Part shown: positions 31,463 through 64,000 of the stretch, piece by piece
Layout of the letters: each line of letters starts with the position of its first letter
Position numbering within the stretch: position 1 is the stretch's first letter
Source: an uncultured Alphaproteobacteria bacterium
Lineage (GTDB): Bacteria > Pseudomonadota > Alphaproteobacteria > RF32 > CAG-239
Direction: 5' to 3'
Length of the DNA: 64,000 nt
NCBI GenBank assembly: GCA_944390885.1
Contig: CALXRP010000006.1
Coordinates: 2,216 to 66,215 of the forward strand
Made by a program: the position numbers and the translations under genes
Notes under the pieces: model-generated
The model's input: the letters and a program-made list of their open reading frames with translations, nothing else
Databases searched by the model: none
Told to the model about the DNA's origin: nothing

Positions 31463-31573
31463 GCGCTTCATCGATACGCCGGAAAAAAAGGTTGATTTTC
31501 TCTGCAAATTCTATATACCTGTATATTAGTTAAAAAATCTCAAGATAAAAATCAATAAAAGGTGATATTCAAA

Positions 31574-34373: not shown

Positions 34374-34446
34374 ACTGTGAGTAATTATTTTTTTTGTTGG
34401 TAAAATCCGGCGGTTTAAGACAATATAAAACATATACGATTTTATT

Positions 34447-34887
34447 TTGGAGGAGAATAAAATGGAACTCGAGCTTTGGCAATCTCTTTCAATCGCCGGT
34501 CTGGTGCTTTTGATTGTAGAAATCTTAACGCCGACGATGTTTTTCTTAAATTTGGCGCTGGCCTGTTTTGTCACGGCCGGCGTTTCCGTATACTTTTCGG
34601 AGCTGAATATTTTGGTTCCGGTCTGGGTTGTGGCCTCGGCCGTATTTTTGTTCTTGTTAAAACCGTTGCAAAAGCGCAATAAAATCAGCGCCGGAACGGG
34701 AATGGACAAATACGTCGGGCAAAAAGCGCAGGTGATTGAAAAAATAGACGGCGATGGCGGTGTTATTTCGGTTTTTGACGAGCGATGGAATGCCCGCAGC
34801 GAAAACGGAGAAGAGTTTGATGTCGGAAGCAAAGTTTATATTGTTCGCAATGAAAATTTAACAATGTTTGTAAGAAAGGAAAAATAA
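34447..34887 (+). CDS. NfeD-like membrane protein (stomatin-operon partner)
   Basis: Hydrophobic N-terminal segments and a C-terminal OB-like domain. Immediately precedes the SPFH gene (2-nt gap). Confidence 0.65.
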   Translation: MEENKMELELWQSLSIAGLVLLIVEILTPTMFFLNLALACFVTAGVSVYFSELNILVPVWVVASAVFLFLLKPLQKRNKISAGTGMDKYVGQKAQVIEKIDGDGGVISVFDERWNARSENGEEFDVGSKVYIVRNENLTMFVRKEK

Positions 34888-34888
34888 A

Positions 34889-35881
34889 ATGGTCGTATGG
34901 TGGATATTGATTGCACTTGTTGTAATATATGTTTTGAAAGGGATTATCATTATTCAACAAGCCGAAGCCGTAATTGTGGAAAGGCTCGGAAAATTTGAAA
35001 AAGAACTCTCTCCGGGCTTAAACTTTATTTTTCCGATCTTGGAAGCACCGCGCGCAATTTCCTGGAAAATAACCCAAAAGCTTCCGAACGGTGAGAGTTA
35101 TTCTTATATCAAAGACCGTGTAAAAATAGATCTGCGTGAGTCGGTTTATGACTTTCCCCGTCAGAATGTGATTACCAAAGACAATGTTACAATCAGCATT
35201 AATGCCTTGTTGTATTTTCAGATTGTCAATGCCAAAAGTGCAGTTTATGAAATTCAGAACCTGCCGGAAGCAATTGAAAAACTGACGCAGACCACGTTGC
35301 GTAATTTGGTCGGTGCAATTGATCTTGATGAAACGCTGGTTTCAAGAGACAAAATCAATCATGAGCTGCGTGCTATTTTGGATGAAGCCACCAACAAATG
35401 GGGGGTTAAGGTCAACCGTGTCGAGCTGCAGGATATTATTCCGCCGGCAGACATTCAACAGGCTATGGAAAAACAAATGAAAGCCGAGAGAGAACGCCGC
35501 GCTGCCATTTTGGAAGCTGAAGGTCTTAAAAAATCGGCCATTTTGAAAGCCGAAGGTCAGAAAGAGGCCGAAATCAACCGTGCGGAAGGTGAGAAACAAT
35601 CTGCAATTTTAAGGGCAGAAGGTTCGGCGGAAGCCCGGATCAAAAATGCCAACGCTGAAGCCGAAGCAATCCGCGCCGTCAGCGATGCCATCGCCTCTAA
35701 TGGGCAACCCGATAAATACCTGATTGCAATGAAGTATCTTGAAACCCTGAAGTCCATTACCGAAGGCGAAAACAATAAGGTAGTCTATATGCCTTATGAG
35801 GCAACCGGCATCTTGAGCTCCATTGACGGTATCAAACAAATGCTGGAAAGCAGCGGAAAAGCTTCTAAAAAATCTGCATAA
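34889..35881 (+). CDS. SPFH/band-7 (stomatin/prohibitin-family) protein
   Basis: N-terminal TM. Band-7 core (IIIQQAEAVIVERLGKF..LSPGLNFIFP, ..ITKDNV.I.INA.LYFQIV....AVYE) and a C-terminal coiled-coil region rich in E/A/K repeats. Confidence 0.85.
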   Translation: MVVWWILIALVVIYVLKGIIIIQQAEAVIVERLGKFEKELSPGLNFIFPILEAPRAISWKITQKLPNGESYSYIKDRVKIDLRESVYDFPRQNVITKDNVTISINALLYFQIVNAKSAVYEIQNLPEAIEKLTQTTLRNLVGAIDLDETLVSRDKINHELRAILDEATNKWGVKVNRVELQDIIPPADIQQAMEKQMKAERERRAAILEAEGLKKSAILKAEGQKEAEINRAEGEKQSAILRAEGSAEARIKNANAEAEAIRAVSDAIASNGQPDKYLIAMKYLETLKSITEGENNKVVYMPYEATGILSSIDGIKQMLESSGKASKKSA

Positions 35882-50330: not shown

Positions 50331-51974
50331 TCAATGCCCGGCGCCTTTTTTAACCTTGATACGGTAAATGTCGTAGTAATACACGCCTCTCAGAAAAGTC
50401 CCGATATAGTGAAGATGCTTTCTGATTTTGCTGTCAAGTTTTCTCGGTTCAGATGGTTTTTGTTTCATAAAAGCTGTAGCACTACTGTTGGCAACGATGA
50501 AATAATCGCCTTTATGCTTGACAAGAGAAGAAATGATTTGCACTTTGTCGGCATCGTGAACAAAAGTAACGGAATGAACCTTTCTAAAATCATTAACCAG
50601 ATTGATAATGGCAAAAATTCGCTCATTATAAAAAACAACATCTTTACCGGATAAGTCAGCAAAAATTTTAGCCTTTTCTTGAGACGTATGAAAAGCATAG
50701 TTACTTCGGTCAGAAAAATCGGTCAGCCAGACATTGCTGAAAATCAAAACTCCTAAAATATAAAATCGCCAATTTATAGAAAGACCGCAGGCTTTTCCGA
50801 AAGCGTCCGCAAAATATATGATAATCAGGCAAAGAACAGGAATAATCGGCATAAAATAACGATCATCAAAATCTGCCATATCCGGGCTGGCAAAAGCAAT
50901 AAATACAAAATACGGAAGAGTATATAAAAGCAAAACGGGAAAAATGGAACCGGGAGTTTTTTGATGAAGAGGGCTGATCTTCACAAAAGTCACGGACAAG
51001 ATAAAAATAACCAAAACCGCCGCCGGGTAGGAAACCTTGTTAAAGGGCAGAATATTTATCAGAACCAGATTGGAGATTCTCATCATAAATTTTTCAGAAA
51101 GGAGCAGATAATAGTCCAGGTCTTTATCTGCGGCTTCATCTCCGCGGTAAGAATGCATCAAAACGTCAGCTGCCGGATAATAAAAAAGAAAAAAGGCCGC
51201 CACACTGGTCAACATCAATCCGGCATAAATAAAAATGAGCCGGAATTGCTTTCTTTTTAAGAAAATAAAACAAGTGCCTGCAGAAATAAAAAATATGACC
51301 GGCAAAAGATAGTAATGTGTCAAAAAGCCAAAAAACGCCAAAAGAAAAATTTTAAGAGCCATAGAAAAATTAAGGCTGTTGCTTTTTAGCAAAATAAGAT
51401 GCTCATAAATCAACCAGGTTATCAGCATAGCCTGTAGCATATAAGAGCGGATAAATACGGCCATATTCAAATTAGCCAAGGAAAAACTAAAAAAGATAAG
51501 GCTCAAATAACAAAGGCGTTTGTCCTGAAAAAGCTCACCAGCAATTTTGTATAAAAAATAAAGCAACAAAACAAGAGAAACAGCATTAATCGGGTATCCT
51601 TGCCATTTGCTGAACGTTTCCGGAAAGAACGAGGATATGGTATGCAAAATAAAATAATAAAAAGGAGGATGAACACCCAAAGCCAGATTTTCAACAACAT
51701 TTTCATAATCAAAGCGGTGTTCCGGGCTGACGGTAATATAGCTTGTAAAAAAATCCGAAGAAAAGCTCTGCCCGAATAACTGATGATGCGTATCTTCAAG
51801 AAATGAATCTATCCCCGGAGCCAAATATGGCCCTTGTTGACTGTTGGCATGCGCAAATGAAAAAATTTCGTCACCGTGAAAATCGTCTTTCTGGTAAAAA
51901 TAAAATGTTACCAGGCATAAGTTAATTAAAACGATCAGAAGAAATTTATAATCTGCTTTTTGCCAAATTTTCAT
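50331..51974 (-). CDS. GT-C fold polytopic glycosyltransferase (ArnT/PMT-like)
   Basis: ~12 TM helices. Conserved acidic DE motif in the first extracytoplasmic loop (..FYQKDDFHGDEIFSF..). 547 aa. Confidence 0.6.
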   Translation of the reverse strand: MKIWQKADYKFLLIVLINLCLVTFYFYQKDDFHGDEIFSFAHANSQQGPYLAPGIDSFLEDTHHQLFGQSFSSDFFTSYITVSPEHRFDYENVVENLALGVHPPFYYFILHTISSFFPETFSKWQGYPINAVSLVLLLYFLYKIAGELFQDKRLCYLSLIFFSFSLANLNMAVFIRSYMLQAMLITWLIYEHLILLKSNSLNFSMALKIFLLAFFGFLTHYYLLPVIFFISAGTCFIFLKRKQFRLIFIYAGLMLTSVAAFFLFYYPAADVLMHSYRGDEAADKDLDYYLLLSEKFMMRISNLVLINILPFNKVSYPAAVLVIFILSVTFVKISPLHQKTPGSIFPVLLLYTLPYFVFIAFASPDMADFDDRYFMPIIPVLCLIIIYFADAFGKACGLSINWRFYILGVLIFSNVWLTDFSDRSNYAFHTSQEKAKIFADLSGKDVVFYNERIFAIINLVNDFRKVHSVTFVHDADKVQIISSLVKHKGDYFIVANSSATAFMKQKPSEPRKLDSKIRKHLHYIGTFLRGVYYYDIYRIKVKKGAGH

Positions 51975-52426
51975 GACTTTGAACCTCTTGCGGTAAAAAC
52001 AAAATGTCTTCCGAGATAATAGTTAAGAAAAACTATTCCGATTAATACGACATATTTGGAATAAAAAGCGGAAAAGTCCAGAAAACCGACCAAAAAAACA
52101 ACCGATAAATAATCCAGGAGCCCTGTCCCGCCGCGGCATACAAAAAATCTCCAAACTTCGGAATACAGTTCTTTTTTTGTATGGCAAACGCTGCAGTAAA
52201 CATAATATTTGTTAATAACATAAGCATAAACTTTGGCAATGACAATCGCAGCCAGATTGGCAAAATAATAACGAACGCCGAACAGCAGCAGAATTGTATA
52301 AAGAACGGCGTTTATCGCGGTTGTGCTCAGTCCGGCAAGAATATAACGCGAGAATTCGGAACGGCATATGTCAGACAACTTTTTCATCATTGTTTTTCTA
52401 TTACGGCAAGAGTCCAAACCAGACAA
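51971..52426 (-). CDS. GtrA-family small membrane protein (polyprenol-phosphate sugar translocation)
   Basis: Four TM helices with GtrA-like pattern (..FSRYILAGLSTTAINAVLYTILL..). Confidence 0.7.
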   Translation of the reverse strand: MSGLDSCRNRKTMMKKLSDICRSEFSRYILAGLSTTAINAVLYTILLLFGVRYYFANLAAIVIAKVYAYVINKYYVYCSVCHTKKELYSEVWRFFVCRGGTGLLDYLSVVFLVGFLDFSAFYSKYVVLIGIVFLNYYLGRHFVFTARGSKS

Positions 52427-53001
52427 TCAAAGAGTTTTATTTTTTCTGCTCGCGCATGTTTCCTCAGAAATTTTTTAAAACCGTAAAAAGTATAATGGTT
52501 TATGTGGTCGGGAGGATTCCCGAACCGTAAAATATTTTTGCCGGAAAGCAGGTTTCCCAAACAAAAATAAGGTTCTTTCGGAACAGAAACGATCAAATAT
52601 TTTTTAGCCACTCGGAGAAGTTCGCCCAAAGCCTGTTCAGGGTATTGCAAATGTTCCAAAACTTCTGTGGCACAGACCAGATCAAACTGGTTGTCTTTCG
52701 CTTCAATATGATAAATGTCGCCGACAGAAAATCGAATTTCCAGCGGCAGATGCGAGCGGGCATAAGCTACGGCATCGAGGTTGGCGTCAATTCCTGAAAT
52801 TTGAGCCTGAGGAAAATTCTGAAAAAGCAGGTTTGTAACAAAACCTTCTCCGCAGCCGGCATCCAAAATGGTTGGTTTCTTCAGCCCGAGGAAAGCGACA
52901 GCGTTTATAAAACGGCGGTTAAAATAGCTAAGCATCATCTTTTTCAGAGGATTTTTAGTCTGATATTTTTGCAGATTGCCGCTATTTTTCATCTTTTGCA
53001 T
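52387..53001 (-). CDS. Class I SAM-dependent methyltransferase
   Basis: Motif I ILDAGCGEGF, with post-I and motif II regions. Start is uncertain (in-frame Met at 53001, 52992 or 52938). The longest ORF would overlap the upstream GT2 gene. Confidence 0.65.
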   Translation of the reverse strand: MQKMKNSGNLQKYQTKNPLKKMMLSYFNRRFINAVAFLGLKKPTILDAGCGEGFVTNLLFQNFPQAQISGIDANLDAVAYARSHLPLEIRFSVGDIYHIEAKDNQFDLVCATEVLEHLQYPEQALGELLRVAKKYLIVSVPKEPYFCLGNLLSGKNILRFGNPPDHINHYTFYGFKKFLRKHARAEKIKLFDCLVWTLAVIEKQ

Positions 53002-53950
53002 CCTTGCGGTAAATTTCCTGAATAAAAATATCTTTGTTGGTTTTAGGGGCATTGTCGACAATCAGATTCGCAATCAGCCCGAGTGAAAAAGACTGAAAAC
53101 CGACTAAAATGAACAAAACACCGAGCAACAGCAACGGTCGATGCCCGATAGCTTGTCCGGAAAACCATAGCAGCGTAAGATAAGAACAAATAAGAAAACC
53201 GATACCGAACAAAAACAAACCGAATTTCCCGAAAAAATACATCGGTTTATCGTAAAACTTCATCAAAAACAGGGCGGATATTGCATCAAACATACCGCGA
53301 AGATATCGTTCTGCGCCAAATTTAGAATATCCATACCGGCGTTTATGATGCTTTACCGGAATTTCCCCGATTTTAAAACCGTTACGTCTGGCCAAAAGCG
53401 GAATATAACGATGAAATTCTCCGTAAACATTAAGGCTCTTGACTACATTACGGCGGTATGCTTTAAAACCGCAATTAAAGTCATGCAAAGCAATTCCTGA
53501 AATTTTTGATGTTACAAAATTAAAAACTTTTGACGGCAGTCGTTTTTCCAGAGGATCTTTTCTGTTTGTTTTCCAACCGGAAACCAGATCATAGCCTTCA
53601 TCAATTTTTTTGATAAATTTTCCGATTTCTCCGGCGTCATCTTGCAAATCAGCGTCCATCGTAATAACGATATCACCGGATGTATGCCGAAAACCGGTCT
53701 GCAATGCGGCTGATTTACCAAAATTTTTTCTGAGAGAAATCAATGTAACCGTCGGGTCGGCATCAGCAATATTTCTGATTTTTTCTTCTGTCGTATCGGT
53801 AGAACCGTCGTTTACAAAGCAAATCTCATATTGTGAAAATAAGGCCTTTTGCTGAAGTTTGTTCAGATTTTTCTTCAGTTTATCATAAAGCGAAACAATT
53901 GCTTCTTCTTCGTTATACGCGGAAATAACAACGGATAAACACCTCTGCAT
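52982..53950 (-). CDS. GT2-family polyprenol-phosphate glycosyltransferase (GtrB/ArnC/DPM1-like)
   Basis: ..VVISAYNEEEAI.. , ..VNDGSTDTT.. , ..ITMDADLQDD.. DxD region, and two C-terminal TM helices. Confidence 0.8.
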   Translation of the reverse strand: MQRCLSVVISAYNEEEAIVSLYDKLKKNLNKLQQKALFSQYEICFVNDGSTDTTEEKIRNIADADPTVTLISLRKNFGKSAALQTGFRHTSGDIVITMDADLQDDAGEIGKFIKKIDEGYDLVSGWKTNRKDPLEKRLPSKVFNFVTSKISGIALHDFNCGFKAYRRNVVKSLNVYGEFHRYIPLLARRNGFKIGEIPVKHHKRRYGYSKFGAERYLRGMFDAISALFLMKFYDKPMYFFGKFGLFLFGIGFLICSYLTLLWFSGQAIGHRPLLLLGVLFILVGFQSFSLGLIANLIVDNAPKTNKDIFIQEIYRKDAKDEK

Positions 53951-54119
53951 CTTAAAACAGCCTCATCATTTTATTAATAATGAAAAATGTTATAATATTT
54001 TTGAAAATAAGTAAGCCTTTTTTTGTCGGTTATCAAATATAAAATATATCCTTCATATTGACAGATGTTAAAAAACAATATAACTTCCCGGCAAAATAAA
54101 TTATTAATCATATATTACT

Positions 54120-54860
54120 ATGGAAGAAATACAATTTTTTGAAAAATTTGCAGATTCTCGTTTTATGGTCTGCATAAGAACACCCCGCAATCTGACATCA
54201 GAAACGACGGTTGTTTTGGTTCATGGCTTTTGGTCTCTTCCGTTGGGAAGAAAATATGACTTGTTGAGCAACATCTGTGAACGCCTGGGCGTAAAATGTG
54301 CGGCTTATGAGCTGATCGGACACGGTTCGGACATTGCTCGTCTTGATAATATGGATTTAAATGTTCTGATTGGGCAGCTGGAAGATCTGATTCCCCGCGT
54401 ATTTGGCAATGATGTTATTTTGATCGGATCCTGCGGCGGCGGTCTGGTTGCTTTGCAGACAGCCCGAAAACATCCGACAGCGGTAAAAGGCATTATAACT
54501 TTGGCCACCGCGCTGGATTGGCGTTTTCTAACACCGGAACAAATGAAGACTGTCAATGAAAAAGGCTTTGTTTATGTGCGTTTTGGACACCATGTGGAAG
54601 ATTGCAAAATCACCAAAAGATTTTGCGATTCGTATGCCGAAGTAGAACATTGGGCGCCGCATGAAGTCTCTTATCCCGTACACATTATCCAAGGCAGCGG
54701 TGATAATGTTATGGACTGGCGAAAGTCATTAAAATTATTGGAGTTTGTGCAAGGCAAAGATGTCATGTTGAAGGTCATTCAGGGAACAGGACATCGAGTT
54801 GCCGACAAAAAGAGCTTTAGGGAAATAGAGTTTTCTCTGCAGACAATGTTAGGCAAATAA
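54120..54860 (+). CDS. Alpha/beta hydrolase
   Basis: ..VVLVHGFWS.. ; nucleophile elbow region ..ILIGSCGGG.. ; 246 aa. Confidence 0.65.
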   Translation: MEEIQFFEKFADSRFMVCIRTPRNLTSETTVVLVHGFWSLPLGRKYDLLSNICERLGVKCAAYELIGHGSDIARLDNMDLNVLIGQLEDLIPRVFGNDVILIGSCGGGLVALQTARKHPTAVKGIITLATALDWRFLTPEQMKTVNEKGFVYVRFGHHVEDCKITKRFCDSYAEVEHWAPHEVSYPVHIIQGSGDNVMDWRKSLKLLEFVQGKDVMLKVIQGTGHRVADKKSFREIEFSLQTMLGK

Positions 54861-54892
54861 AAAAAGGAGGCTCATGCCTCCTTTTTTTATAA
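54859..54892. terminator. Bidirectional rho-independent terminator
   Basis: Stem AGGAGGC / GCCTCCT with loop TCAT, flanked by A7 and T7. Confidence 0.75.
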
Positions 54893-54894
54893 AA

Positions 54895-55632
54895 TCACAA
54901 ACAATACGTCGCTTCATTACCGTAATCATCATAAAAACGGACTAAAGCACTGCCGTTTCCGGTTGTTACTTCAATATCGGTATATCCGACACTGTAACTG
55001 ACCGTTTGGTGCCGATACAAATCAAGAAATGACACGCTGTTTCCCGATTGAATCTTTAATCTGTTCTGATACCTTGTCAAAACCATGTTGCCGATTTCGA
55101 GCCTTGTCGGAGCATCAAGTGCACCCCAGATATAATATCCGAGCAGACTGTCAAAAAAGCGGTTATGATACAGGGCGTGACAGATAAAACGGTTATAATA
55201 CCCGCCCCACCGATACCAATACCAGTCATTAAAATAACAATGATGGTGATAATGCCTAAAACCGTGATGGTGATGAAAGATCGGCCGCCACGAATGGCTT
55301 GGTGGAGGAGGCATATGTCTGTGATGATACCCGGATGGCGGACGTTGATATCGCAAAGCCCCCGGACGGTTTCTGTCAACATTCGGACGTCCCGGTGCAT
55401 AATGTCTGACGCCACGGTCCCCGACATCAGAGTGTCGATAAGAACGACTGTTTTGATTAGCCGAAAAATTCCGCGACGGCGAGCTGCGTAAAGAATGTAC
55501 CGATGACATACTGCGATTGGAAGAACGTTCAACCCGATGGCTTTGATTCCTGCCATTTTCTCTTTGCGCGTAACCTTGAACTGCAAAGAGTCCCATAACC
55601 AAAATAGTTATGATAAAAATTTTCTTTTTCAT
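54895..55632 (-). CDS. Secreted His/Arg/Ser-rich low-complexity protein with an aromatic-rich C-terminal domain
   Basis: Signal peptide MKKKIFIITILVMGLFAVQGYAQ. His clusters (HHRHMPPPP, FHHHHGFRHYHHHCYF). C-terminal W/Y-rich ~100 aa. Confidence 0.5.
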   Translation of the reverse strand: MKKKIFIITILVMGLFAVQGYAQRENGRNQSHRVERSSNRSMSSVHSLRSSPSRNFSANQNSRSYRHSDVGDRGVRHYAPGRPNVDRNRPGALRYQRPPSGYHHRHMPPPPSHSWRPIFHHHHGFRHYHHHCYFNDWYWYRWGGYYNRFICHALYHNRFFDSLLGYYIWGALDAPTRLEIGNMVLTRYQNRLKIQSGNSVSFLDLYRHQTVSYSVGYTDIEVTTGNGSALVRFYDDYGNEATYCL

Positions 55633-55861: not shown

Positions 55862-58800
55862 ATGATAACTGGGACTGAAAGATTATTATATCTCGGAATA
55901 GATGTGGGTTCAACGACGGTTAAGGCCGTTGTTATTGATGACAAAGAAAATGTTTTGTTTTCCACCTATCAGCGCCATATGTCGGAAGTTCGCAAAAAAA
56001 TCATTTCCATACTGAATGAAATCATCAAAAAATTTCCCGATACCCGTTTTAAAATAAGTCTGACCGGTTCCGGTGCCCTGTCACTGTGTACCAAACTGAA
56101 CGTTCCTTTTGTGCAGGAAGTCATCGCCTCCAGCCTGAGCATAAAAAAGCAGATTCCCGATGCCGACGTTATTATCGAACTGGGCGGGGAAGACGCCAAA
56201 CTGACTTTTCTGACCAGCGGAACGGACTTGCGGATGAATGAAACCTGTGCCGGCGGTACGGGGGCTTTTATCGACCAGATGGCCTCTTTCCTAAACCTTG
56301 ACGTCAGCGAAATGGATGAACTGGCGCTGCAATATAAAAATATTTATCCGATTGCCTCGCGCTGCGGCGTTTTTGCCAAAACGGATATTGTGCCGCTGAT
56401 TAACGAAGGCTGCACAAAAAGCGATATTGCCATGTCGATTATGCAGGCGGTTGTCAACCAGTTTATCGGCGGTTTGGCACGCGGGCGGGACATTACCGGT
56501 AAAATTGTGTTTCTGGGCGGTCCGCTGGCTTTTATCAAATCTCTGCGGCAATGCTTTATCGAAACTTTGAAATTAGAGGCTGAAAACGCTGTCCTGCCGG
56601 AGCGGGCCGAGCTTTTTGTGGCTTTGGGAGCGGCCTTGCATGCGCTGGGAGGGTCGGAAGAACCGATAGAATTAAAGAGCTTTGCTGCGGCATTGGATAA
56701 ACTGGATGAAGAAAACGAAATTCAAAAACTGCCGCCGCTTTTTAAAGACAAACGGGAAAAAGAAGAATTTGATAAACGACACAGCCGCACCAATGTCCGG
56801 ACTTTTCCTCTGGAAGAATACGAGGGTGATGCCTGGTTCGGCATTGACAGCGGCTCCACCACTATTAAAGCTGTTTTGATAGATGCTCAGGATCGGCTGC
56901 TTTATTCCCATTACGGGCCAAACAAGGGAGATCCGTTTCATCAGGCCTTAAATATTTTGCAGGAAATATATTCCCGGGCCAAACCCGGATTAAAAATCAA
57001 GGCCGCGGCGGCGACCGGATACGGCAGTGCGCTGTTGAAAGCCGGTTTAAAACTGGATATTGATGAGGTGGAAACGGTAGCGCATTGTCAGGCCGCAGCG
57101 TTTTTTGCTCCGAATGCCAGCTTTGTTCTCGACATCGGCGGACAAGACATAAAATGTATGAAGCTGAAAAACGGCGTCATAGAAAAAATCGGGCTGAACG
57201 AGGCCTGTTCTTCCGGTTGCGGATCTTTTATTGAGAATTTTGCCAAATCTCTGAATATGAGTATGCCGGAATTTGTCGAGGCGGCGCTCAAAGCCAAACA
57301 CCCGGTCGATTTGGGCACGCGCTGCACGGTATTTATGAACTCTAAGGTCAAACAGGCGCAAAAAGACGGTGTTTCCGTCGGAGATATTGCCGCCGGTCTG
57401 TCTTATTCCGTAATCAAAAACGCCTGTTACAAGGTCATTAAAATCACGGACGTTTCCGAATTAGGCGATTGCATCGTTGCGCAGGGGGGCTCGTTTTTAA
57501 ACGACGCGCTGCTCCGGGCCTTGGAAATCCAGGTCGGCAAAACGATTGTCCGGCCGGGGCTTGCCGGTCTGATGGGCGCTTTCGGCGCGGCGCTGATTGC
57601 CCGAAAACGCGGGCCGGAAAACGGAGTTAAAACCGGTCTTATTACCCCGGAAGAAATCAAAAATCTGAACATCAAAACCACTAACGCCAGATGTCAGGGA
57701 TGTACCAACCATTGTATGCTGACAATCACCGATTTCGGCAATAAAAAGAAGTTTATTTCCGGCAATAAATGTGAAAGAGGCGCCGGCAAAGTCAAAAATA
57801 ACAAAATCAACCTCTGCGCATACAAATATGCCCGCTTGTTTGATCATTACAAACCCCTTCCGAAAGAAAAAGCCGTTCACGGCACGGTCGGCATTCCGCG
57901 GGCATTGAATATGTACGAGAACTATCCGCTGTGGTTCACACTTTTCACACATTTGGGCTTTCGGGTAGAACTGTCGTCGCCATCTTCCAAAAAAATGTTT
58001 TTCAGCGGCTATGCCTCCATTCCGTCGCAAACGGTCTGCTATCCGGCCAAGATGGCGCACGGACATATTATGGATTTGTTGAATAAAAACGTAGATTGCA
58101 TCTTTTTCCCGTGCATTCCACGGGAGCAAAAAGAATTTCCGTCGCAGGCCGACAGCTATAATTGTCCGGTCGTAACCGGTTATCCGGAACTGCTGTCTAA
58201 AAATATTTCCGAGCTGGCATCGGGAGAGGTGCCGTTTTATGCACCGTTTTTGCCGCTGGATGAAAAGATTTTGGCCAAACGGCTGAAGTCTATACCGCTG
58301 TTTGCCGGCTTTTCTTCTTTGCAGTTAAGGATGGCTGTCAAACGTGCTTTTGTGGAGTTGCGAAGGTTTAAAAAAGACATCAGAAACGCCGGTATTGAAG
58401 CCGTCGAGAAATTGAAGAAAAACGGCGAATACGGCATTGTCCTCGCCGGCCACCCGTATCATATCGACCCGGCTATCAACCACGGGATCCCTGAGCTTAT
58501 CAATGCCTGCGGCTTGTCTGTTCTGACAGAAGATTCCGTTGCTCACCTGCGGCCAAATCCGGAGGCGCTGCGGGTTCGCGACCAATGGACCTATCACTCC
58601 CGCTTATATCGGGCAGGTACTTTTGCTGCCGATAATAACAATCTTGCAATTTTGCAGCTGGTGTCTTTCGGTTGCGGCGTCGATGCCATTACTGCAGATC
58701 AGCTGGAAGAAATTGTAACCTCCAAAGAACAGCTTTATGCTCAGATAAAAATTGACGAGGGCGATAATCTGGGGCCGGCAAAGATTCGGATTCGTTCCTT

Positions 58801-60100
58801 ACTGGCTGCGTTGAAAGATCGCCAGCAGGAAAAGAAAAAATCTGAAAAAACGGTATCTGAAAAGGTTCCGGTCTTTACTGCCGAGATGAAGAAAACCCAT
58901 ACGATTCTCATACCGCAGCTTTCGCCGACGCATTTTCAGTTTATGGAAACGATATTTGCCAGTGAAGGCTATAAAGTCGCCCAGCTTCCGAAAGTTGATA
59001 AAGACGCGATAGAACTTGGCTTGAAACATGTCAATAATGACGCTTGTTTCCCGGCAATTGTTGTCATCGGCCAGCTGTTACAGGCAATCCGGAAGGGTGA
59101 TTACGATACCGACAAGATTGCTCTGCTGATTTCTCAGACCAACGGCGGCTGTCGGGCGTCAAACTATGCCGGACTTTTGCGCCGGGCTCTGATTCAATGT
59201 AATATGGGACACATTCCGGTCATTACCATGAATGTCAGCGGCAATGTCGACAGTCCGGGCTTTATCCCCGGCCGCAAGATTCTGCTGCGTATGATTATGG
59301 CCGGCTGTTACGGCGACGCCCTGATGCGGATGACGCACCGGGTTTCCCCTTATGAAAAAGTCAAAGGCAGCACGCAGAAACTGGTGGACAAATGGGTTGA
59401 AATCATCAAGAAAAATCTGCAAAGCGGCAATGTCATTACGTTCAATCTGAATATGCTCCGGATGATTCGGGAGTTTGATAAGCTGCCGCTCAGAGATATA
59501 AAGAGAAAGCCCCGTGTCGGCCTGGTCGGCGAAATCCTGCTGAAATACCATCCGGATGCCAACAATCAGGCAGCCCGGATAATAGAAGAAGAGGGCGGAG
59601 AAGCCGTTATTCCTGATTTGATGGACTTTATGCTCTATGGGTTTTATGACCATATTTACAATTACAAATATCTGCAGGGCTCTTGGAAAGCTTATGCCGT
59701 CAGCCTTTCGAGCATAGCCGCACTGGAACTGTGCCGCGGAACAATGCGGCTGGGCTTGAAACTTTCCAAACGGTTTGAACCGCCGGTATTTTTCAAGAAT
59801 TTGCGAAAGAAAATCCGCGGTTTGTTGTCTTTGGGGCATCAGACAGGTGAAGGATGGCTGCTGACTGCCGAGATTGTCGAACTGCTGGAAGCCGGTGTTG
59901 ACAATGTTTTGTGCATGCAGCCTTTTGGCTGTCTGCCAAACCATATTACCGGAAAGGGCTTTATCAAAGAAATCAAAAAACGCTTTCCGAAAGCCAACAT
60001 CATCGCAGTTGATTATGATCCCGGTGCCAGTGAAACCAACCAGATTAACCGTATCAAGCTGATGATGTCTATTTCCAAACAAAAGCAGAAAGGAAATTAA
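55862..60100 (+). CDS. 1412-aa fusion protein: two BadF/BadG/BcrA/BcrD-type (HgdC-like activase) ATPase domains plus a 2-hydroxyacyl-CoA-dehydratase-like (DUF2229-type) C-terminal region
   Basis: ASKHA phosphate-1 motifs LGIDVGSTTVKAVVID (aa ~11) and FGIDSGSTTIKAVLID (aa ~325). Cys motifs NETCAGGTGAFI and NEACSSGCGSFI. Cys-rich C-terminal ~800 aa. Confidence 0.75.
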   Translation: MITGTERLLYLGIDVGSTTVKAVVIDDKENVLFSTYQRHMSEVRKKIISILNEIIKKFPDTRFKISLTGSGALSLCTKLNVPFVQEVIASSLSIKKQIPDADVIIELGGEDAKLTFLTSGTDLRMNETCAGGTGAFIDQMASFLNLDVSEMDELALQYKNIYPIASRCGVFAKTDIVPLINEGCTKSDIAMSIMQAVVNQFIGGLARGRDITGKIVFLGGPLAFIKSLRQCFIETLKLEAENAVLPERAELFVALGAALHALGGSEEPIELKSFAAALDKLDEENEIQKLPPLFKDKREKEEFDKRHSRTNVRTFPLEEYEGDAWFGIDSGSTTIKAVLIDAQDRLLYSHYGPNKGDPFHQALNILQEIYSRAKPGLKIKAAAATGYGSALLKAGLKLDIDEVETVAHCQAAAFFAPNASFVLDIGGQDIKCMKLKNGVIEKIGLNEACSSGCGSFIENFAKSLNMSMPEFVEAALKAKHPVDLGTRCTVFMNSKVKQAQKDGVSVGDIAAGLSYSVIKNACYKVIKITDVSELGDCIVAQGGSFLNDALLRALEIQVGKTIVRPGLAGLMGAFGAALIARKRGPENGVKTGLITPEEIKNLNIKTTNARCQGCTNHCMLTITDFGNKKKFISGNKCERGAGKVKNNKINLCAYKYARLFDHYKPLPKEKAVHGTVGIPRALNMYENYPLWFTLFTHLGFRVELSSPSSKKMFFSGYASIPSQTVCYPAKMAHGHIMDLLNKNVDCIFFPCIPREQKEFPSQADSYNCPVVTGYPELLSKNISELASGEVPFYAPFLPLDEKILAKRLKSIPLFAGFSSLQLRMAVKRAFVELRRFKKDIRNAGIEAVEKLKKNGEYGIVLAGHPYHIDPAINHGIPELINACGLSVLTEDSVAHLRPNPEALRVRDQWTYHSRLYRAGTFAADNNNLAILQLVSFGCGVDAITADQLEEIVTSKEQLYAQIKIDEGDNLGPAKIRIRSLLAALKDRQQEKKKSEKTVSEKVPVFTAEMKKTHTILIPQLSPTHFQFMETIFASEGYKVAQLPKVDKDAIELGLKHVNNDACFPAIVVIGQLLQAIRKGDYDTDKIALLISQTNGGCRASNYAGLLRRALIQCNMGHIPVITMNVSGNVDSPGFIPGRKILLRMIMAGCYGDALMRMTHRVSPYEKVKGSTQKLVDKWVEIIKKNLQSGNVITFNLNMLRMIREFDKLPLRDIKRKPRVGLVGEILLKYHPDANNQAARIIEEEGGEAVIPDLMDFMLYGFYDHIYNYKYLQGSWKAYAVSLSSIAALELCRGTMRLGLKLSKRFEPPVFFKNLRKKIRGLLSLGHQTGEGWLLTAEIVELLEAGVDNVLCMQPFGCLPNHITGKGFIKEIKKRFPKANIIAVDYDPGASETNQINRIKLMMSISKQKQKGN

Positions 60101-60148
60101 GCGGAAACGTGGTAAAGCATATTAAAACTTCTTTGCGACATTTGCGCA

Positions 60149-60790
60149 TCATTGGTTAGGCAATATCTCAAACATCAGATATTTGAACAGCGGTACTCTG
60201 CCCGGATTATAATCCGTCCAACATTTTTCACAGTTGTAAGTTCCTTTTAACTCAAGCTTGTTTCTGCGAAATTTGTAATTAGGATTTTTATAAAAATCTT
60301 CTTTCCATTCAAGCTTACCATGCAAAGTTTTTTGTTTTTCATTAATAGAAAAAGCATATCCCAAACTTTGTTTGCAAGGCAGTTTTTCGTTCCAGTAATT
60401 GTTATCATTGGTAAGAAGTATAGCATAACTGGATGATCCTTTTTCTGTATACTTTTCCAGCCGTTGAATATCAGCACAAAAATCGTATCGGCCATTGTCC
60501 TGTGCGGCATGGGTTTTTAGTTCCAGCTTAACACCGTGGCAATAAACCTCCTTCTTTTTGGTTTTATATTTTAGTTCAATAAAATGTTTCTTCCCGTCAT
60601 ATATGACACATAAATCAATATAATTAATTTTTTTCTCGGTTGGTTGAGGATATTCCAAAATAACTTCTGCTCTGTTTCCGAGTTTTTCTTTTATTTTCCA
60701 GGCCAGACAGAATTGAAAATCTGCTTCTGAACAAAAAATGGTGTTTTCATCTCCAAAAGATTTCATGATATCGATTAATATTTTTTTCAT
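60149..60790 (-). CDS. Small (213-aa) protein with a PD-(D/E)xK-like motif (putative nuclease/effector)
   Basis: E..(ILEYP).. YIDLCVIYDGKKHFIELKYK gives a D / E-x-K arrangement on consecutive predicted strands. Its start abuts the stop of the WYL regulator gene. AT-rich. Confidence 0.4.
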   Translation of the reverse strand: MKKILIDIMKSFGDENTIFCSEADFQFCLAWKIKEKLGNRAEVILEYPQPTEKKINYIDLCVIYDGKKHFIELKYKTKKKEVYCHGVKLELKTHAAQDNGRYDFCADIQRLEKYTEKGSSSYAILLTNDNNYWNEKLPCKQSLGYAFSINEKQKTLHGKLEWKEDFYKNPNYKFRRNKLELKGTYNCEKCWTDYNPGRVPLFKYLMFEILPNQ

Positions 60791-60791
60791 T

Positions 60792-61745
60792 TTAGCTCTT
60801 CCAATTTGTAGGCTTAATCACTTTTACATGTTCACCCCAAGTGTAAAGATGCCAGTCCATTTCCAATCTTCCGCCGGCTTTGAATTTGACGGTCAGACTT
60901 CCATCGTCGTTTTTATGCATTATCTGCGTCGGATGAAAAATATATAAGGAGGCTTCATCAGCAGCTTCTTTGTCAAACAGCCACTCCACCTCAAAAGGTT
61001 CTTCGTGATATGCACCAAAAGATAATTCTGCATATTTTTTCAAATCAAACCCTTTTGTCGGCACAAAAGGAATATCCAAAATTTCAACCGCTTTGATATT
61101 GCTTAAAATAAAATTATGCACTTCATCTCCAAAATAACCATCACTATGATGAGCTACCAAATAATGATTCCTTTCGCCATATAAAAAACCGTATGGGTCA
61201 AGAATGTTTGAGCTGGTTTTTCCTGTTTTTTTATTCAAATAAGTAATTTTAATTTGATGACATTCCAAAATAGCCTGTTTGATGATTGATATAATTTGGT
61301 TATCTATTTTTAATTTTGGTCCCGGGCGGCAAATAAAACCTTCAGCCTCCAATAAAGCCTCAGCATCCGGTTCTATCCGACGAAAAACATCTGTTTTTAT
61401 ACTCGCTTTAATTTTATTAATAATGTTTTCAAAAACTTCTTTTTTATCTTTCAGTTGCTTGTTTTCAAACAAAGATGCCGCCATTTCCAAAACCGATAAT
61501 TCTTCGGCCGAAAATTGAATAAAATCTTTTAATGTTCCTTGTGGAATATACCAACGTTTTGTATTATTATCGCCGATAATTTCTTCCGTTTGCGGAAAGC
61601 GGGTCGTGATCATATTACGCATACGCTCAGCAGTACGCCTGGAAACTCCGAATTTGGCAGAAATTTCATTTAAGGAAACACCTTCACGGGTTGCCTGCAT
61701 CCAAATTGCCAAATCCAACAAATCATAAGTTTTCTCATAGGGCAT
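60792..61745 (-). CDS. HTH-WYL-WCX transcriptional regulator (YafY/PafBC/BrxR-like)
   Basis: N-terminal wHTH (..LNEISAKFGVSRRTAERM..), central WYL-type domain (..ERNHYLVAHHSDGYFGDEVHNFILSNIKAVEIL..) and a C-terminal extension. Confidence 0.7.
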   Translation of the reverse strand: MPYEKTYDLLDLAIWMQATREGVSLNEISAKFGVSRRTAERMRNMITTRFPQTEEIIGDNNTKRWYIPQGTLKDFIQFSAEELSVLEMAASLFENKQLKDKKEVFENIINKIKASIKTDVFRRIEPDAEALLEAEGFICRPGPKLKIDNQIISIIKQAILECHQIKITYLNKKTGKTSSNILDPYGFLYGERNHYLVAHHSDGYFGDEVHNFILSNIKAVEILDIPFVPTKGFDLKKYAELSFGAYHEEPFEVEWLFDKEAADEASLYIFHPTQIMHKNDDGSLTVKFKAGGRLEMDWHLYTWGEHVKVIKPTNWKS

Positions 61746-61784
61746 ATTACCGTTCTTTCATATATTTTGTGTTGTCTCTCTTTA

Positions 61785-62954
61785 TCATTTTGCAATGCAT
61801 TTTAACAAATCGATATCTGGTATTTTGTCCGTATTAAATTTTTCAGCAAAGAAAATTATGTTATGGCCGGTTATGTTCAAATCTGTATTTTCATATTGAG
61901 CTTCTATGTTTTTTGCTTTATATACTGCCAAACATTGATGTTTTTGCTGCAAACTTGGAAAATTTATATTACAATACCACCATAACTCATCATAAAATTT
62001 CCCCTTCTCGACTCTCATACGATTAGTTATTCCTACATTTAAAAACTCATTGTGTGGTATAGCAATATACTCATTCCAGCTTTGTGGATTATGAATAGAC
62101 TTTCTGGGAAAATTTTTTTTAAATAATTTATCAATATATTCTTTCAAATTTTTTACACATTTTTTATAGCTGTCATAAAATTGGGAATCTTCCGGAGTGT
62201 ATGCATGCAGCATCCAAATAGCTGAAGGATATTTTTGAAATACCTTAAAATCAAAGTTTGCATTTTTTACCTTCTCAGCATAATCGTATAAAACTTTTTC
62301 AGAAAGAAGCTCATAGATATTCAAATAATTTGCGCCATGTCCATACAATTGCGCATAAATTGAAGATACATAATATCGCACAAAATCATAACTTTCGTTT
62401 TGTATTTTATCTTCAATAGTTGCAACCAAAATTTTTGCTATATCTCCCCATATCATTTGGATCCACTGATTATTTCCAGGATTTTCCTTATTGACGGTGA
62501 GATATATCTTTGTAACATTTTTTTTGCTTTTTAAATAAGCATCATATTTTTTTAACTGACCTTTTCCGAGCGTACTGCTTGTTTTGGCTTCAATGACTAT
62601 GATAAAAGGTTTGTCTTTGTCGGTTATCCCTTCAATGTATATGTCAAAACGTCCTTTTTTTGGGGGATCAAAATAGAACTCGGGGTAAACATTGTAACAT
62701 GTTATCTGATTTGAATAATCGATACCTTTTACATAATGCAGCAAACGTTTTAAAATTTCTCCCCCAAGACCATGAGGAGCCTTAGCATCTAACAAATAAG
62801 CCAAAGTACGAGTATAGGCCGTTTCCAATCGTCCGTTTTCCAAAAAAGAAAATAATCCCTGATGCAAATTAACAGGATGCGGATATTTTTTATCTTTAAT
62901 AATATTCTGATAAGCTTCAACGGCCTGTTTTTTCAATTCCTCAAAGTCAATCAT
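61785..62954 (-). CDS. 389-aa protein with a PD-(D/E)xK nuclease-like core
   Basis: ..ETAYTRTLAYLLD.. then GRFDIYIEG......FIIVIEAKTSS (D ... E-A-K). Remainder unassignable. Confidence 0.45.
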   Translation of the reverse strand: MIDFEELKKQAVEAYQNIIKDKKYPHPVNLHQGLFSFLENGRLETAYTRTLAYLLDAKAPHGLGGEILKRLLHYVKGIDYSNQITCYNVYPEFYFDPPKKGRFDIYIEGITDKDKPFIIVIEAKTSSTLGKGQLKKYDAYLKSKKNVTKIYLTVNKENPGNNQWIQMIWGDIAKILVATIEDKIQNESYDFVRYYVSSIYAQLYGHGANYLNIYELLSEKVLYDYAEKVKNANFDFKVFQKYPSAIWMLHAYTPEDSQFYDSYKKCVKNLKEYIDKLFKKNFPRKSIHNPQSWNEYIAIPHNEFLNVGITNRMRVEKGKFYDELWWYCNINFPSLQQKHQCLAVYKAKNIEAQYENTDLNITGHNIIFFAEKFNTDKIPDIDLLKCIAK

Positions 62955-62963
62955 TGTTTCTCC

Positions 62964-64000
62964 TTATAAAAAGCCAATTTTCCTACTGACGGGAGCTTTG
63001 TTTTGCTGCTCTGTTTCAAGCATTTTAATAAGCTCCTCTTTATCTCCCGTAAGCCCTAAAATCTCAGCCTTATCTTTTACGACAACAAAGTCTCCGGGGG
63101 TCAACAGATTAAGATGAGATAAATCTATATTAGGAATATTAAAGAAATGCTTAAAAGCGGCAGAACACTGTTCTGAAGTCATATAATCATATTTTACTTT
63201 AAAGGTAAAACGTCGTAAAGATGCCTTATCAAGCGTATCCATTAAGTTTGTTGTACAAACAAAGGGATAAGTATGTTTTTCCATCTGGGTAAGCATTTCA
63301 TTTACTTGGGTAATTTCCCAACTTCTTTGAGCACTGCTTCTGTCTTGCAAAAAACTGTCAGCTTCGTCAAATATAAGCAGGGCTCCTCGTTGCTTGGCTT
63401 CTTCAAAGGCCTTGGCAATGTTTTTTTCAGCTTCGCCAACAAATTTATCTAATAAATCAGAACATCTTTTCTTAATGATCGGAAGTCCCATTTGTTTTCC
63501 TAAATATTGAGCAAAAGCAGATTTTCCTGTCCCGGATGCCCCATAAAGACAAAGTGAAAAATTAAGTTTGCCGAGAGTAGTCAGTCGCTCAGCTAAAATT
63601 TCCAGACTAATATCTGTATTTAGAAGTTTAGGATTAAAATCTATTTCAAAATCAGAGACATTAGTTTTAAGTTTTTCTCCGTTATTATAAGCTTCTTGTA
63701 GCACGTCAAGCGTTTGTTCCACTTCTGCAATGTTTCCGTTTATCAAGCGAGTCGCTTTTGTTGCCGTATTGATAAATGAAGGGGATAATGAATATTTGCG
63801 AGCAAAGGTCTCAGCTGTCTTTTTGTTGCAGGGAAGGTTATTTTCCTGCAGGCTTTTTTGCCACATCTCTTCTATTACCGTTTTGGACGGACGGGTAAAA
63901 TTTATAGCATAGCTAAAACGGCGCAAATAAGCTTTATCCATGGTATGAATATCATTAGAAATCCAAATCGTCGGCTTGGCATTATTTTCCAGCAGACGGT
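62964..64000 (-). CDS. Tandem AAA+ ATPase, 5' end outside window (second AAA domain complete)
   Basis: Walker A GASGTGKS, Walker B LLIFDEADSF, sensor-1 TTN and Arg-finger region DKASLRRF. The frame stays open upstream of the annotated Met to the window edge and encodes ..PTIWISNDIHTMDKAYLRRF, the sensor/Arg-finger end of a preceding AAA domain. Confidence 0.7.
   Translation of the reverse strand, partial: RLLENNAKPTIWISNDIHTMDKAYLRRFSYAINFTRPSKTVIEEMWQKSLQENNLPCNKKTAETFARKYSLSPSFINTATKATRLINGNIAEVEQTLDVLQEAYNNGEKLKTNVSDFEIDFNPKLLNTDISLEILAERLTTLGKLNFSLCLYGASGTGKSAFAQYLGKQMGLPIIKKRCSDLLDKFVGEAEKNIAKAFEEAKQRGALLIFDEADSFLQDRSSAQRSWEITQVNEMLTQMEKHTYPFVCTTNLMDTLDKASLRRFTFKVKYDYMTSEQCSAAFKHFFNIPNIDLSHLNLLTPGDFVVVKDKAEILGLTGDKEELIKMLETEQQNKAPVSRKIGFL

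Follow-up and report, generated by a model that had tools for sequence, protein, structure and literature searches.

Which of the four genes crowded into the low-GC edge of an alphaproteobacterial contig belong together, and what might they do? The genes occupy positions 60149-64000 of a 64,000-nt stretch (the window) of contig CALXRP010000006.1, and encode, in order on the minus strand, a tandem AAA+ ATPase (AAA), a nuclease of the PDDEXK_4 family, a transcription factor with a winged helix-turn-helix (wHTH), a WYL and a WCX domain (WYL), and a small protein with a PD-(D/E)xK fold. A reading made from the sequence only had proposed that the four genes together form a single, previously undescribed defence system. 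Our analysis indicates an operon of composite make-up that was acquired horizontally and has as its basis a conserved module of two genes, AAA and WYL. We put the probability that it serves a defence island as an inducible module against phages or mobile elements at roughly 0.55.

A low-GC operon that runs past the window edge

The open reading frame (ORF) table agreed exactly with the arrangement originally read from the letters, namely four tightly spaced, co-oriented ORFs on the minus strand with intergenic gaps of 9, 39 and 1 nt; the start codon of the last gene lies 1 nt past the WYL stop. Gaps of this size indicate that the four genes are probably carried on one transcript. When the operon was scanned for promoter and terminator consensus sequences, it scored no better than shuffled sequence. 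The G+C content (GC) of the locus was 0.344, compared with a mean of 0.440 (standard deviation 0.021, minimum 0.376) in the remaining 3.85-kb windows and 0.481 in the convergent 1412-aa neighbour gene, so that the AT-richness noticed by eye was borne out by the sliding-window calculation.

The ATPase frame is open through nt 63998, that is, to the window edge, where the sequence-only reading had expected it to continue. It does: an exact-match look-up of the 389-aa nuclease among Logan contigs returned a contig (L001) that is 100% identical to window positions 56419-64000 over 7,582 bp and runs 8.2 kb further. On this contig the ATPase gene starts ~1,024 nt past the window end, and the complete protein has 686 aa.

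The ATPase is paired with a WYL regulator across genomes

To place the locus among its relatives, a family alignment was scanned over one genome per species, which gave more than 564 confirmed loci. The best 80 were fetched and four metagenome contexts were added; 81 distinct loci remained after duplicate removal (loci and contigs are cited by L numbers). Counts made with home-made hidden Markov models (HMMs) are lower bounds, because a five-sequence PDDEXK_4 HMM missed genes detected by Pfam, among them those of L019 and L027. A WYL regulator was present in 60 of the 81 loci, lay within three genes of AAA in 50 and directly adjoined it in 33 by HMM count; in the blastp cluster it was divergent and upstream in 16 and co-oriented and downstream in 14. 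Also near AAA were a Cas4-like DUF2779 protein of ~486 aa (20/81 loci), PAD_porph (15/81), MBL/RMMBL (5/81), PIF1 (4/81), ankyrin (4/81) and PDDEXK_4 (4/81 by blastp cluster; Pfam detects more). The AAA and WYL proteins co-varied in pairwise identity (r = 0.75; none of 2000 Mantel permutations was as high), a correlation to which common host phylogeny would contribute. Because 41 of the 81 loci lack a tightly coupled gene downstream of AAA, the minimal unit is AAA plus WYL. The proposal that the four genes form one system was not upheld: the conserved core is the AAA-WYL pair and the nucleases are variable.

The pair occurs in Alpha-, Beta- and Gammaproteobacteria, Elusimicrobia, Planctomycetes and other phyla, on plasmids, and on viral contigs of IMG/VR. 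On plasmids of Fuscovulum, Leisingera, Novosphingobium, Pantoea and Rhodoferax, RefSeq lists an 'AAA family ATPase' or 'ATP-binding protein' adjoining a 'WYL domain-containing protein'; on the Methylomonas plasmid the WYL gene is ~4 kb from the ATPase. Gene order differs among these carriers. Fuscovulum blasticum pRsa and Leisingera thetidis have AAA, WYL, ADP-ribosylglycohydrolase, (HEPN), AddB-like and UvrD/AddA-like genes; Novosphingobium humi has AddA-like, AddB-like and WYL genes divergent from AAA, with a PD-(D/E)XK gene after AAA; Pantoea sp. At-9b has AAA, WYL, two hypotheticals and SNF2; Rhodoferax antarcticus has AAA, DUF2779 and WYL; Methylomonas koyamae and Croceicoccus marinus carry further variants. 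Toxin-antitoxin, HEPN, macro, PLD and SNF2 genes were found beside the plasmid-borne pairs, and an integrase and PrimPol island surrounds the L005 locus.

Genes for the processing of DNA breaks recurred next to the family. In L086 the WYL gene is divergent from an AAA-recC-recB-recD array; AddA/AddB-like genes lie beside AAA in L025, L063 and L105-L107, SbcCD in L124, PIF1 and RmuC in L008, and the Cas4-DUF2779 protein at other loci. PAD_porph deiminase-like proteins adjoin AAA-WYL at L008:9962-10855 and 14 other loci, mostly of Elusimicrobia, and ADP-ribosylglycohydrolases lie near it in several Alphaproteobacteria and plasmids (L005:4795-5586, L105:9084-10517, L107:8852-10420, L110:3889-4704). 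Enzymes of both families are known to act on arginine modifications.

The regulator and its predicted operator are of the DriD/DdaA type

The 317-aa protein matched the Pfam families WYL (PF13280, 3.3e-09) and WCX (PF25583, 2.6e-06) and has an N-terminal HTH. When it was searched with phmmer against all of the Protein Data Bank (PDB), the only matches were entries of Caulobacter DriD (9pfq, 8tp8; 1.3e-51, residues 1-313), with an identity of roughly 35-40% as estimated by eye; no BrxR, CapW or PafBC chain matched at E <=0.01. The HTH-WYL-WCX architecture assigned by the sequence-only reading was thus confirmed by Pfam, and its assignment to the BrxR/CapW/PafBC type gave way to DriD, the only match among solved structures. 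The protein has the DriD/DdaA family architecture of wHTH, 3-helix linker, WYL and WCX and, from this alignment, is homologous to DriD over its full length.

DriD and DdaA are homodimeric activators of a non-SOS response to DNA damage in Caulobacter crescentus and Moraxellaceae, respectively. DriD is a homodimeric activator that is switched on by single-stranded DNA (ssDNA) and binds a pseudo-palindrome overlapping the -35 element; its targets include the operon divergent from driD (PMC9186387, PMC13004042). DdaA of Moraxellaceae activates DNA-damage genes and defence systems, including CRISPR-Cas, restriction-modification (R-M) and Zorya (PMC12392091). We considered whether Caulobacter offers a precedent for the pairing with AAA, and found that it does not: the operon divergent from driD comprises CCNA_03891 (function unknown) and a TonB-dependent transporter (PMC13004042).

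In L001, AAA and a divergent small ORF are separated by 139 bp, which contain two inverted copies of CGACAAATTATG, a 12-mer that occurs exactly twice in the whole contig where 0.17 copies are expected. Each copy sits in a 17-bp pseudo-palindrome, the two boxes being GCGACAAATTATGTTGC and ACGACAAATTATGACGC. In many other loci the consensus (A/G)CG(A/T)CA-N5-TG(A/T)CG(T/C) was found ~45-60 nt upstream of the AAA start codon. Palindromes of the form ACGAC-N7-GTCGT were present in the 81 loci at 1.14/kb in the 300 nt upstream of AAA, compared with 0.26/kb overall. A position matrix, although built from the same loci as were counted, so that independent support comes from positional clustering and from held-out loci, gave, for 21 of the 81 loci where 0.33 were expected, a site whose centre lies 30-90 nt upstream of the AAA start as called, and several more loci had a site at the start of an evidently over-extended AAA ORF call. 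Held-out loci with a box 44-62 nt upstream of AAA were L105, L108/L109, L110, L113, L115, L125 and L127; at RefSeq-annotated AAA starts the box centres were 48, 59 and 50 nt upstream. L106 and L127 have boxes ~100 nt upstream of AAA, and L105 and L107 have extra DriD-type boxes before their ADP-ribosylglycohydrolase cargo. No box was detected at loci that lack the WYL gene (L112, L116, L117, L120, L124).

The consensus upstream of AAA equals the published DdaA motif, CGWCA-N5-TGWCG, and also fits the DriD motif, CGAC-N7-GTCG (PMC12392091). Of the 17 positions in the didA box of Caulobacter, 15 are matched by the box ACGTCCGTTTCTGACGT of L073 and L113 (PMC9186387, PMC13004042). These results indicate that a predicted operator of the type cognate to the regulator stands in front of AAA. 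Inside the window, the simple pattern CGAC-N7-GNCG was not enriched.

A p97-like tandem ATPase with both AAA domains intact

The complete ATPase matched PF00004 twice, and its part in the window matched it with an E-value of 1.5e-27. The first and second AAA domains (D1 and D2) have the motifs GEPGTGKT and LLVDEADD, and GASGTGKS and LLIFDEADS, respectively, in L001; they are preceded by a helical and winged-helix domain of ~236 residues. Across 24 members down to 39% identity, the Walker A and B motifs, the sensor-1 asparagines (N357, N593) and the RRF arginine fingers (R368/R369, R604/R605) are invariant in both domains. In the D2 pore loop G530 and E533 are invariant, and the D1 counterpart is a degenerate Y-P-I-G-E. 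When the family profile was compared with solved structures, p97, Cdc48 and VAT were the best matches, each aligned in two stretches. From these features the protein is a classical-clade, type II (tandem) AAA+ ATPase with an aromatic pore loop in D2, in agreement with the first description, all of whose quoted motifs were found in place.

The family is large, with full-length relatives of ~655-700 aa; a search of 1.84 billion representatives gave 150 or more 50%-identity clusters at E <=1e-102 and 3,272 at E <=1e-30. PHROGs gave a full-length match to phrog_10401 ('ATPase', 1.5e-91). Matches to IstB, DnaC and clamp-loader models were weak, those of IstB type lying far below cutoffs. The C-terminal I-G-F is invariant in the 24-member alignment, as is, across the family, the K-I-G-F-(L/I) end of which it is part; this end may serve as a docking tail. 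The insertion of the PDDEXK_4 gene described below alters only the last residue of this tail, from I to L.

A T7 tract in AAA codons 46-48 (L001:7303-7309, ~880 nt past the window end) is T6 in 6 of 11 conspecific contigs, which are independent assemblies, and there AAA is split into ORFs of 67 aa and 614/619 aa. Over the 370 nt compared, L001 (T7) and L093/L099 (T6) show no other difference. The difference could be phase variation or recurrent pseudogenisation.

Three IMG/VR contigs of 203-282 kb (L112, L121, L122), possibly jumbo phages, carry a family AAA gene in a co-directional gene array. They contain neither a WYL gene nor a DriD-type box, so the ATPase also exists outside a WYL-controlled context.

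The nuclease genes vary between genomes and strains

The 389-aa protein matched Pfam PF14281 (7.5e-16, 59 bits against a cutoff of 22.3) over a segment that covers RFDIY and VIEAKT, and the PADLOC model PDC-S26 (6.9e-17). All of 12 sequences, down to 33% identity, keep E44, D104, E122-A-K124 and Q133; no family matched the C-terminal half (~residues 200-389). The nuclease core first suspected from a D...E-A-K pattern is supported by these matches, and the protein is a predicted PD-(D/E)xK nuclease with a conserved E...D...ExK core.

This gene is specific to the strain. Eleven contigs from other samples (L091-L101), with 98% nucleotide identity at the same chromosomal site, have AAA, a spacer of 56-62 nt, WYL and the 213-aa gene, and the 389-aa gene is absent from all 11. 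A 1,224-bp segment stands where conspecifics have the 62-bp AAA-WYL spacer (blastn, L001 versus L092), with one breakpoint at the final two codons of AAA and the other at the codon that starts WYL; in this strain the PDDEXK_4 gene is placed precisely between the two genes of the core. The 90%-identity clusters agree: that of AAA has 39 members, that of WYL 28, that of the small protein 21 and that of PDDEXK_4 only 3.

At the level of the family, PDDEXK_4 was the commonest non-WYL operon partner (5 of 61 partners, all also matching PDC-S26). Such genes follow the WYL gene in L019, L027 and L073, follow AAA in L022, and lie five genes off in L017. Of 17 detectable homologues of the 389-aa protein, both whose context was looked up directly follow a family AAA. 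In L108/L109 (51% identity to the 389-aa protein) the order is AAA, PDDEXK_4, two reverse-strand genes and WYL. L110 has the window order of AAA, PDDEXK_4 and WYL, with a nuclease 37% identical and an AAA 61% identical, and in Rhodoferax the slot between AAA and WYL holds the DUF2779 nuclease. The PDDEXK_4 gene appears from its contexts to be an optional but dedicated nuclease partner of AAA.

A second PDDEXK_4/PDC-S26 gene, encoding 336 aa, lies with a 94-103-aa ORF in the L001:5632-7027 region; both are divergent from AAA, and the pair is present in all conspecific contigs. A strong DriD-type box (L001:7028-7044) abuts the small ORF and a weak one (L001:6691-6707) precedes the nuclease gene, and the two genes may share a regulon with the operon. 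The 336-aa and 389-aa proteins were considered as recent duplicates, a relation dismissed because their similarity is limited to one weak local match (E 7e-05).

The 213-aa protein belongs to no Pfam family, and none of its 278 homologues is annotated. Invariant positions of the family are S21, E22, D24, E46, D59, E72-L-K74, D107, R110, E112, T127 and N128. It has an alpha-beta-beta-beta-alpha-beta core with the D in strand 2 and ExK in strand 3, so that the PD-(D/E)xK likeness proposed earlier for the last gene is supported by the fold and by the invariance of D59 and E72-L-K74. By profile, this gene or a remote 186-aa relative directly follows WYL only in closer AAA relatives (L002, L005, L013, L024). 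At ~40% identity, homologues are lone inserted genes in Firmicutes prophages (L102:6001-6630, L103:6001-6627): in Peptoclostridium (L102) between the large terminase and portal genes, and in Aneurinibacillus (L103) beside an integrase and a gene of terminase size. Morons and homing endonucleases typically occupy such positions. The gene is an autonomous module that has become coupled to WYL in this lineage, and it defines a new, prophage-borne PD-(D/E)xK family of ~210 aa.

The operon lies in a strain-variable island

Going outward from AAA, L001 carries the divergent 94-103-aa ORF, the 336-aa PDDEXK_4 gene, a 167-aa unknown and Peptidase_S51, and further out a type II R-M pair (an EcoRI-like methylase and a GmrSD_N-HNH enzyme) and a resolvase (L001:394-4694). 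The far side of the island differs by strain, with Fic/MerR in L092 (L092:1-4457), Fic and DpnI in L093 (L093:87-3688) and DUF234 in L091; the Peptidase_S51 gene and the 167-aa unknown are constant between strains. In all 11 conspecific contigs AAA-WYL-213 occupies the same chromosomal site, and no integrase or replication gene was found beside the operon in the window-species loci examined. Judging from its gene content, the outer island, with its R-M, Fic and DpnI genes, looks like a defence-gene hot spot, in line with the defence-type system proposed by the sequence-only reading.

Comparison with known systems

PADLOC, NCBIfam, Pfam and PHROGs scans of the four proteins and their island neighbours found no named defence system. 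PADLOC returned only a partial IetA match and the candidate PDC-S26, consistent with the first impression that no named system was present. On D2, the PADLOC matches were IetA (up to 5.6e-37, residues 486-641), TRIP13 (2e-21) and DolB (1e-10), and the NCBIfam model IteA aligned to D2 only (1.3e-27, 97 bits against a cutoff of 510). IetA was the top PADLOC/NCBIfam match of D2, and both proteins are classical AAA ATPases of defence islands. However, IetA has a single AAA domain, models of 262-395 positions and a subtilase partner, whereas the ATPase studied here is tandem, 686 aa long and without a protease; neither L001 nor the set of neighbours that recur at the 81 loci includes an IetS-like subtilase. 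Since the match is confined to D2, the IteA score is below the cutoff and no IetS-like protease is nearby, we rejected Ietat as the identity of the ATPase.

The regulator shares its domain order with DriD and DdaA, and the half-sites and spacing of the operator are equal to theirs (PMC12392091); like driD, the WYL gene of the family is often divergent from the operon that it apparently controls (PMC13004042). Unlike DriD, it resides here in a low-GC variable island, and often on plasmids, and its conserved neighbour is a tandem AAA. BrxR and CapW likewise are nucleic-acid-sensing wHTH-WYL-WCX regulators beside potentially toxic defence operons (PMC9122601, PMC11662680), but the regulator studied here has no BrxR, CapW or PafBC match and a DriD/DdaA-type operator, and PADLOC scans found no BREX or CBASS genes at the locus.

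With p97, Cdc48 and VAT the ATPase shares two classical AAA domains with Walker A/B, sensor-1 and arginine fingers and an aromatic D2 pore loop. It differs in having the ~236-aa helical and winged-helix N-domain instead of a double-psi-barrel, in its K-I-G-F-[LI] tail and, judging from its contexts, in being bacterial, accessory and WYL-regulated. The CDC48-like ATPases of type III-A CoCoNuT are also bacterial, tandem SpoVK/CDC48-like proteins in a conflict context with a PD-(D/E)xK-fold neighbour; in those, only the C-terminal ATPase domain is active, leucine-rich repeat and barrel domains are C-terminal, and the partners are of McrBC type (PMC11090510), whereas the window ATPase keeps both AAA domains intact and its extra domain is N-terminal. 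The 389-aa and 336-aa proteins match several PDC-S26 models as well as Pfam PDDEXK_4; PDC-S26 is a single-gene candidate in PADLOC, whereas for the subfamily found here every context examined has a family AAA at most a few genes away.

Taken singly, the WYL factor, the classical AAA and the PD-(D/E)xK nucleases are all of known kinds. The pairing of AAA with WYL and its operator, the combination of a wHTH with a tandem AAA in one protein, the association with PDDEXK_4/PDC-S26 and the ~210-aa family are apparently undescribed in the libraries and literature searched, and no description of an AAA-WYL module was found in that literature.

Probable role and alternative explanations

In the defence role that we prefer, the WYL dimer would sense ssDNA, or a related nucleic-acid signal, from DNA damage or from invading or replicating foreign DNA. 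It would then bind the operator overlapping the -35 element and switch on the AAA-(PDDEXK_4)-WYL-nuclease operon; because the WYL gene lies within the operon, we propose positive feedback. The AAA hexamer would unfold or extract a target protein through its D2 pore loops (K-F-V-G), the winged-helix N-domain possibly selecting a DNA-bound target, and the co-induced nucleases would degrade DNA. Low GC, carriage on plasmids and viral contigs, neighbours of the R-M, Fic, DpnI, toxin-antitoxin, HEPN, macro and PLD kinds, strain-level gain and loss, and frameshifted copies are all consistent with a defence role. A more specific version is possible, and we hold it only tentatively: the ~680-aa AAA family may be a bacterial counterpart of p97/Cdc48 that is induced by an ssDNA-sensing WYL regulator and extracts or unfolds a DNA-bound or phage protein, for example an inhibitor or obstacle of RecBCD/AddAB, while interchangeable nucleases (PDDEXK_4, Cas4-DUF2779, small PD-(D/E)xK) destroy the DNA exposed.

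Several points weigh against the defence role or parts of this scheme. The support for it in the AAA family is one of genomic association. The L001 boxes lie ~1.07-1.16 kb past the window end and are known only from that contig; within 60000-64000 no matrix score reached 8, and in the whole window none reached 12. The matrix count shares its loci with the matrix, as stated above. Among the residues with which DriD contacts ssDNA, Y168 and Y192 are kept, and W206, R204, K202 and R178 are replaced by F, H, E and S, respectively (alignment versus PMC9186387); because several contacts are substituted, an ssDNA ligand of the 317-aa protein is only inferred, and its sequence fits an activator and a repressor alike. 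Since the 41 loci with no tightly coupled gene 3′ of AAA manage without one, a nuclease effector is not obligatory. Finally, DriD and DdaA are regulators of the DNA-damage response, and their kinship would fit repair equally well, as would the repeated DNA-break-processing neighbours.

The last point leads to an alternative that is possible but, in our judgement, rather unlikely: a DNA-damage-response or repair module in which WYL is the host's damage regulator, AAA is a damage-induced remodeller that, for example, clears trapped proteins from DNA or returns repair complexes to use, and the nucleases process DNA ends. The match of the 317-aa protein to DriD alone among solved structures, the operator of DriD/DdaA type (PMC12392091), the recBCD, AddA/AddB-like, SbcCD and PIF1/RmuC neighbours and the single chromosomal site of AAA-WYL-213 in 11 of 11 conspecific contigs all suit it. 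It accords poorly with a patchy distribution that includes plasmids and viral contigs, a GC ~10 points under that of the host, the frameshift in 6 of 11 conspecific AAA genes, the R-M, Fic, DpnI, toxin-antitoxin, HEPN, macro and PLD neighbours, and the lack of any other DriD-type box in the 64-kb window. With the DriD kinship and the RecBCD/AddAB neighbours, a damage response is a rival of the pure phage-defence role proposed at the outset. Defence and repair may not be exclusive, because DdaA-type factors control both programmes (PMC12392091).

The other explanations are less probable. Independent single-gene island modules could have come together by chance, co-located but uncoupled in function; the absence of PDDEXK_4 from 11 of 11 conspecific contigs, the single-gene status of PDC-S26, the small-nuclease homologues that stand alone in prophages and the 41 of 81 AAA loci with no tight downstream gene would all be expected. 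We regard this as improbable given the AAA-WYL linkage in 60 of 81 loci with correlated divergence, a WYL-type operator at a fixed distance upstream of AAA, gaps of 9, 39 and 1 nt that indicate one transcript, and the recurrence of the order AAA, PDDEXK_4, WYL in L110 (61%/37% identity) and of AAA-PDDEXK_4 in L108 and L022. That AAA helps a mobile element to replicate, partition or transpose, in the manner of an IstB-, DnaC- or Orc-like loader, and that WYL is the element's regulator, is very improbable: the winged-helix N-domain, the weak IstB, DnaC and clamp-loader matches and the presence of the family on plasmids, viral contigs and integrase islands recall such helpers, but the K-F-V-G pore loop, the double-arginine fingers and the best matches to p97/Cdc48 are not features of the initiator or loader clade, the IstB-type matches are far under cutoffs, and the window-species loci have no integrase or replication genes beside the operon. 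We give scarcely any credence to a divergent member of a named system (Ietat, CBASS TRIP13/HORMA, Dodola DolB or a CoCoNuT CDC48-like accessory ATPase), despite the IetA, TRIP13, DolB and IteA E-values given above, because those matches span one AAA domain, the IteA score (97 versus 510 bits) and the length of the IetA models (262-395 positions versus 686 aa) fall short, no subtilase, HORMA or DolA partner recurs among the neighbours of the 81 loci, and the window ATPase has two intact AAA domains and an N-terminal extra domain.

If the tentative version with a p97/Cdc48 counterpart and interchangeable nucleases is true, the module would represent an unrecognised class of WYL-gated immune or DNA-damage system across many phyla and plasmids. 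DriD, DdaA, CapW and BrxR are coming to be seen as switches through which DNA damage or phage attack acts on stress and immune programmes, and the targets of such WYL regulators are mostly unknown beyond a few model species. A DriD-type regulator here gains a conserved, physically linked and operator-marked target, a p97-like tandem AAA+ family, beside which the nuclease slot has different occupants between genomes and even between strains of one species. If functional, the module would add a protein-unfolding motor to the effectors of inducible bacterial defence or repair. The ATPase and WYL genes on plasmids of cultured Pantoea, Rhodoferax, Fuscovulum, Leisingera, Novosphingobium and Methylomonas, together with a defined 17-bp operator, provide testable material.

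Feature coordinates and other features of the window

Table 1. Features of the locus at 60149-64000 of the window.
Feature	Position	Strand	Basis or description
AAA+ ATPase, C-terminal part	62964..64000	-	residues 343-686 of 686 aa: D1 end and whole D2
Tail of upstream AAA domain (D1), WISNDIHTMDKAYLRRF	63915-63965	-	motif
D2 Walker A, GASGTGKS	63519-63542	-	motif
D2 pore loop, DKFVGE (K-F-V-G)	63432-63449	-	motif
D2 Walker B, LLIFDEADS	63354-63380	-	motif
D2 sensor-1, TTN	63246-63254	-	motif
D2 arginine fingers, LRRF	63207-63218	-	motif
C-terminal tail, KIGF[LI]	62967-62981	-	alignment
Strain-specific segment, 1,224 bp, carries PDDEXK_4 gene	61746..62969	-	blastn L001 versus L092
PDDEXK_4 nuclease, 389 aa	61785..62954	-	Pfam PF14281, PADLOC PDC-S26
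E44 region	62817-62834	-	invariant
D104 region	62637-62651	-	invariant
E122-A-K124	62580-62597	-	invariant
wHTH-WYL-WCX transcription factor, 317 aa	60792..61745	-	Pfam WYL and WCX, phmmer to DriD
HTH of 317-aa protein	~61608-61721	-	domain
WYL domain of 317-aa protein	61083-61295	-	Pfam
WCX domain of 317-aa protein	60807-60998	-	Pfam
PD-(D/E)xK-fold protein, 213 aa, unannotated family	60149..60790	-	conserved motifs
SEADF	60716-60730	-	conserved motif
D59	60611-60622	-	conserved motif
E72-L-K74	60566-60580	-	conserved motif

No tRNA or Rfam family was found in the window. The conserved chromosomal border of the island is the 1412-aa gene (55862-60100), a fusion of a BcrAD_BadFG activator ATPase and DUF2229 that is 2-hydroxyacyl-CoA dehydratase-like; it converges on the small nuclease gene across a 48-nt spacer. 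A second low-GC stretch (0.37-0.40) at 50331-55632, conserved in L091-L093, resembles a cluster for surface-glycan modification: its products are a GtrA-like protein, a methyltransferase, a family-2 glycosyltransferase, an alpha/beta hydrolase and two unknowns, of 547 aa and 245 aa. In 33471-35881, where the kilobase of lowest GC in the window (0.33) lies, a LysR-type regulator at 33471-34373 is followed by an NfeD/SPFH (Band 7) pair at 34447-35881. Just upstream of the LysR gene, positions 31562-33046 encode a class II aminoacyl-tRNA synthetase of the D/K/N type.

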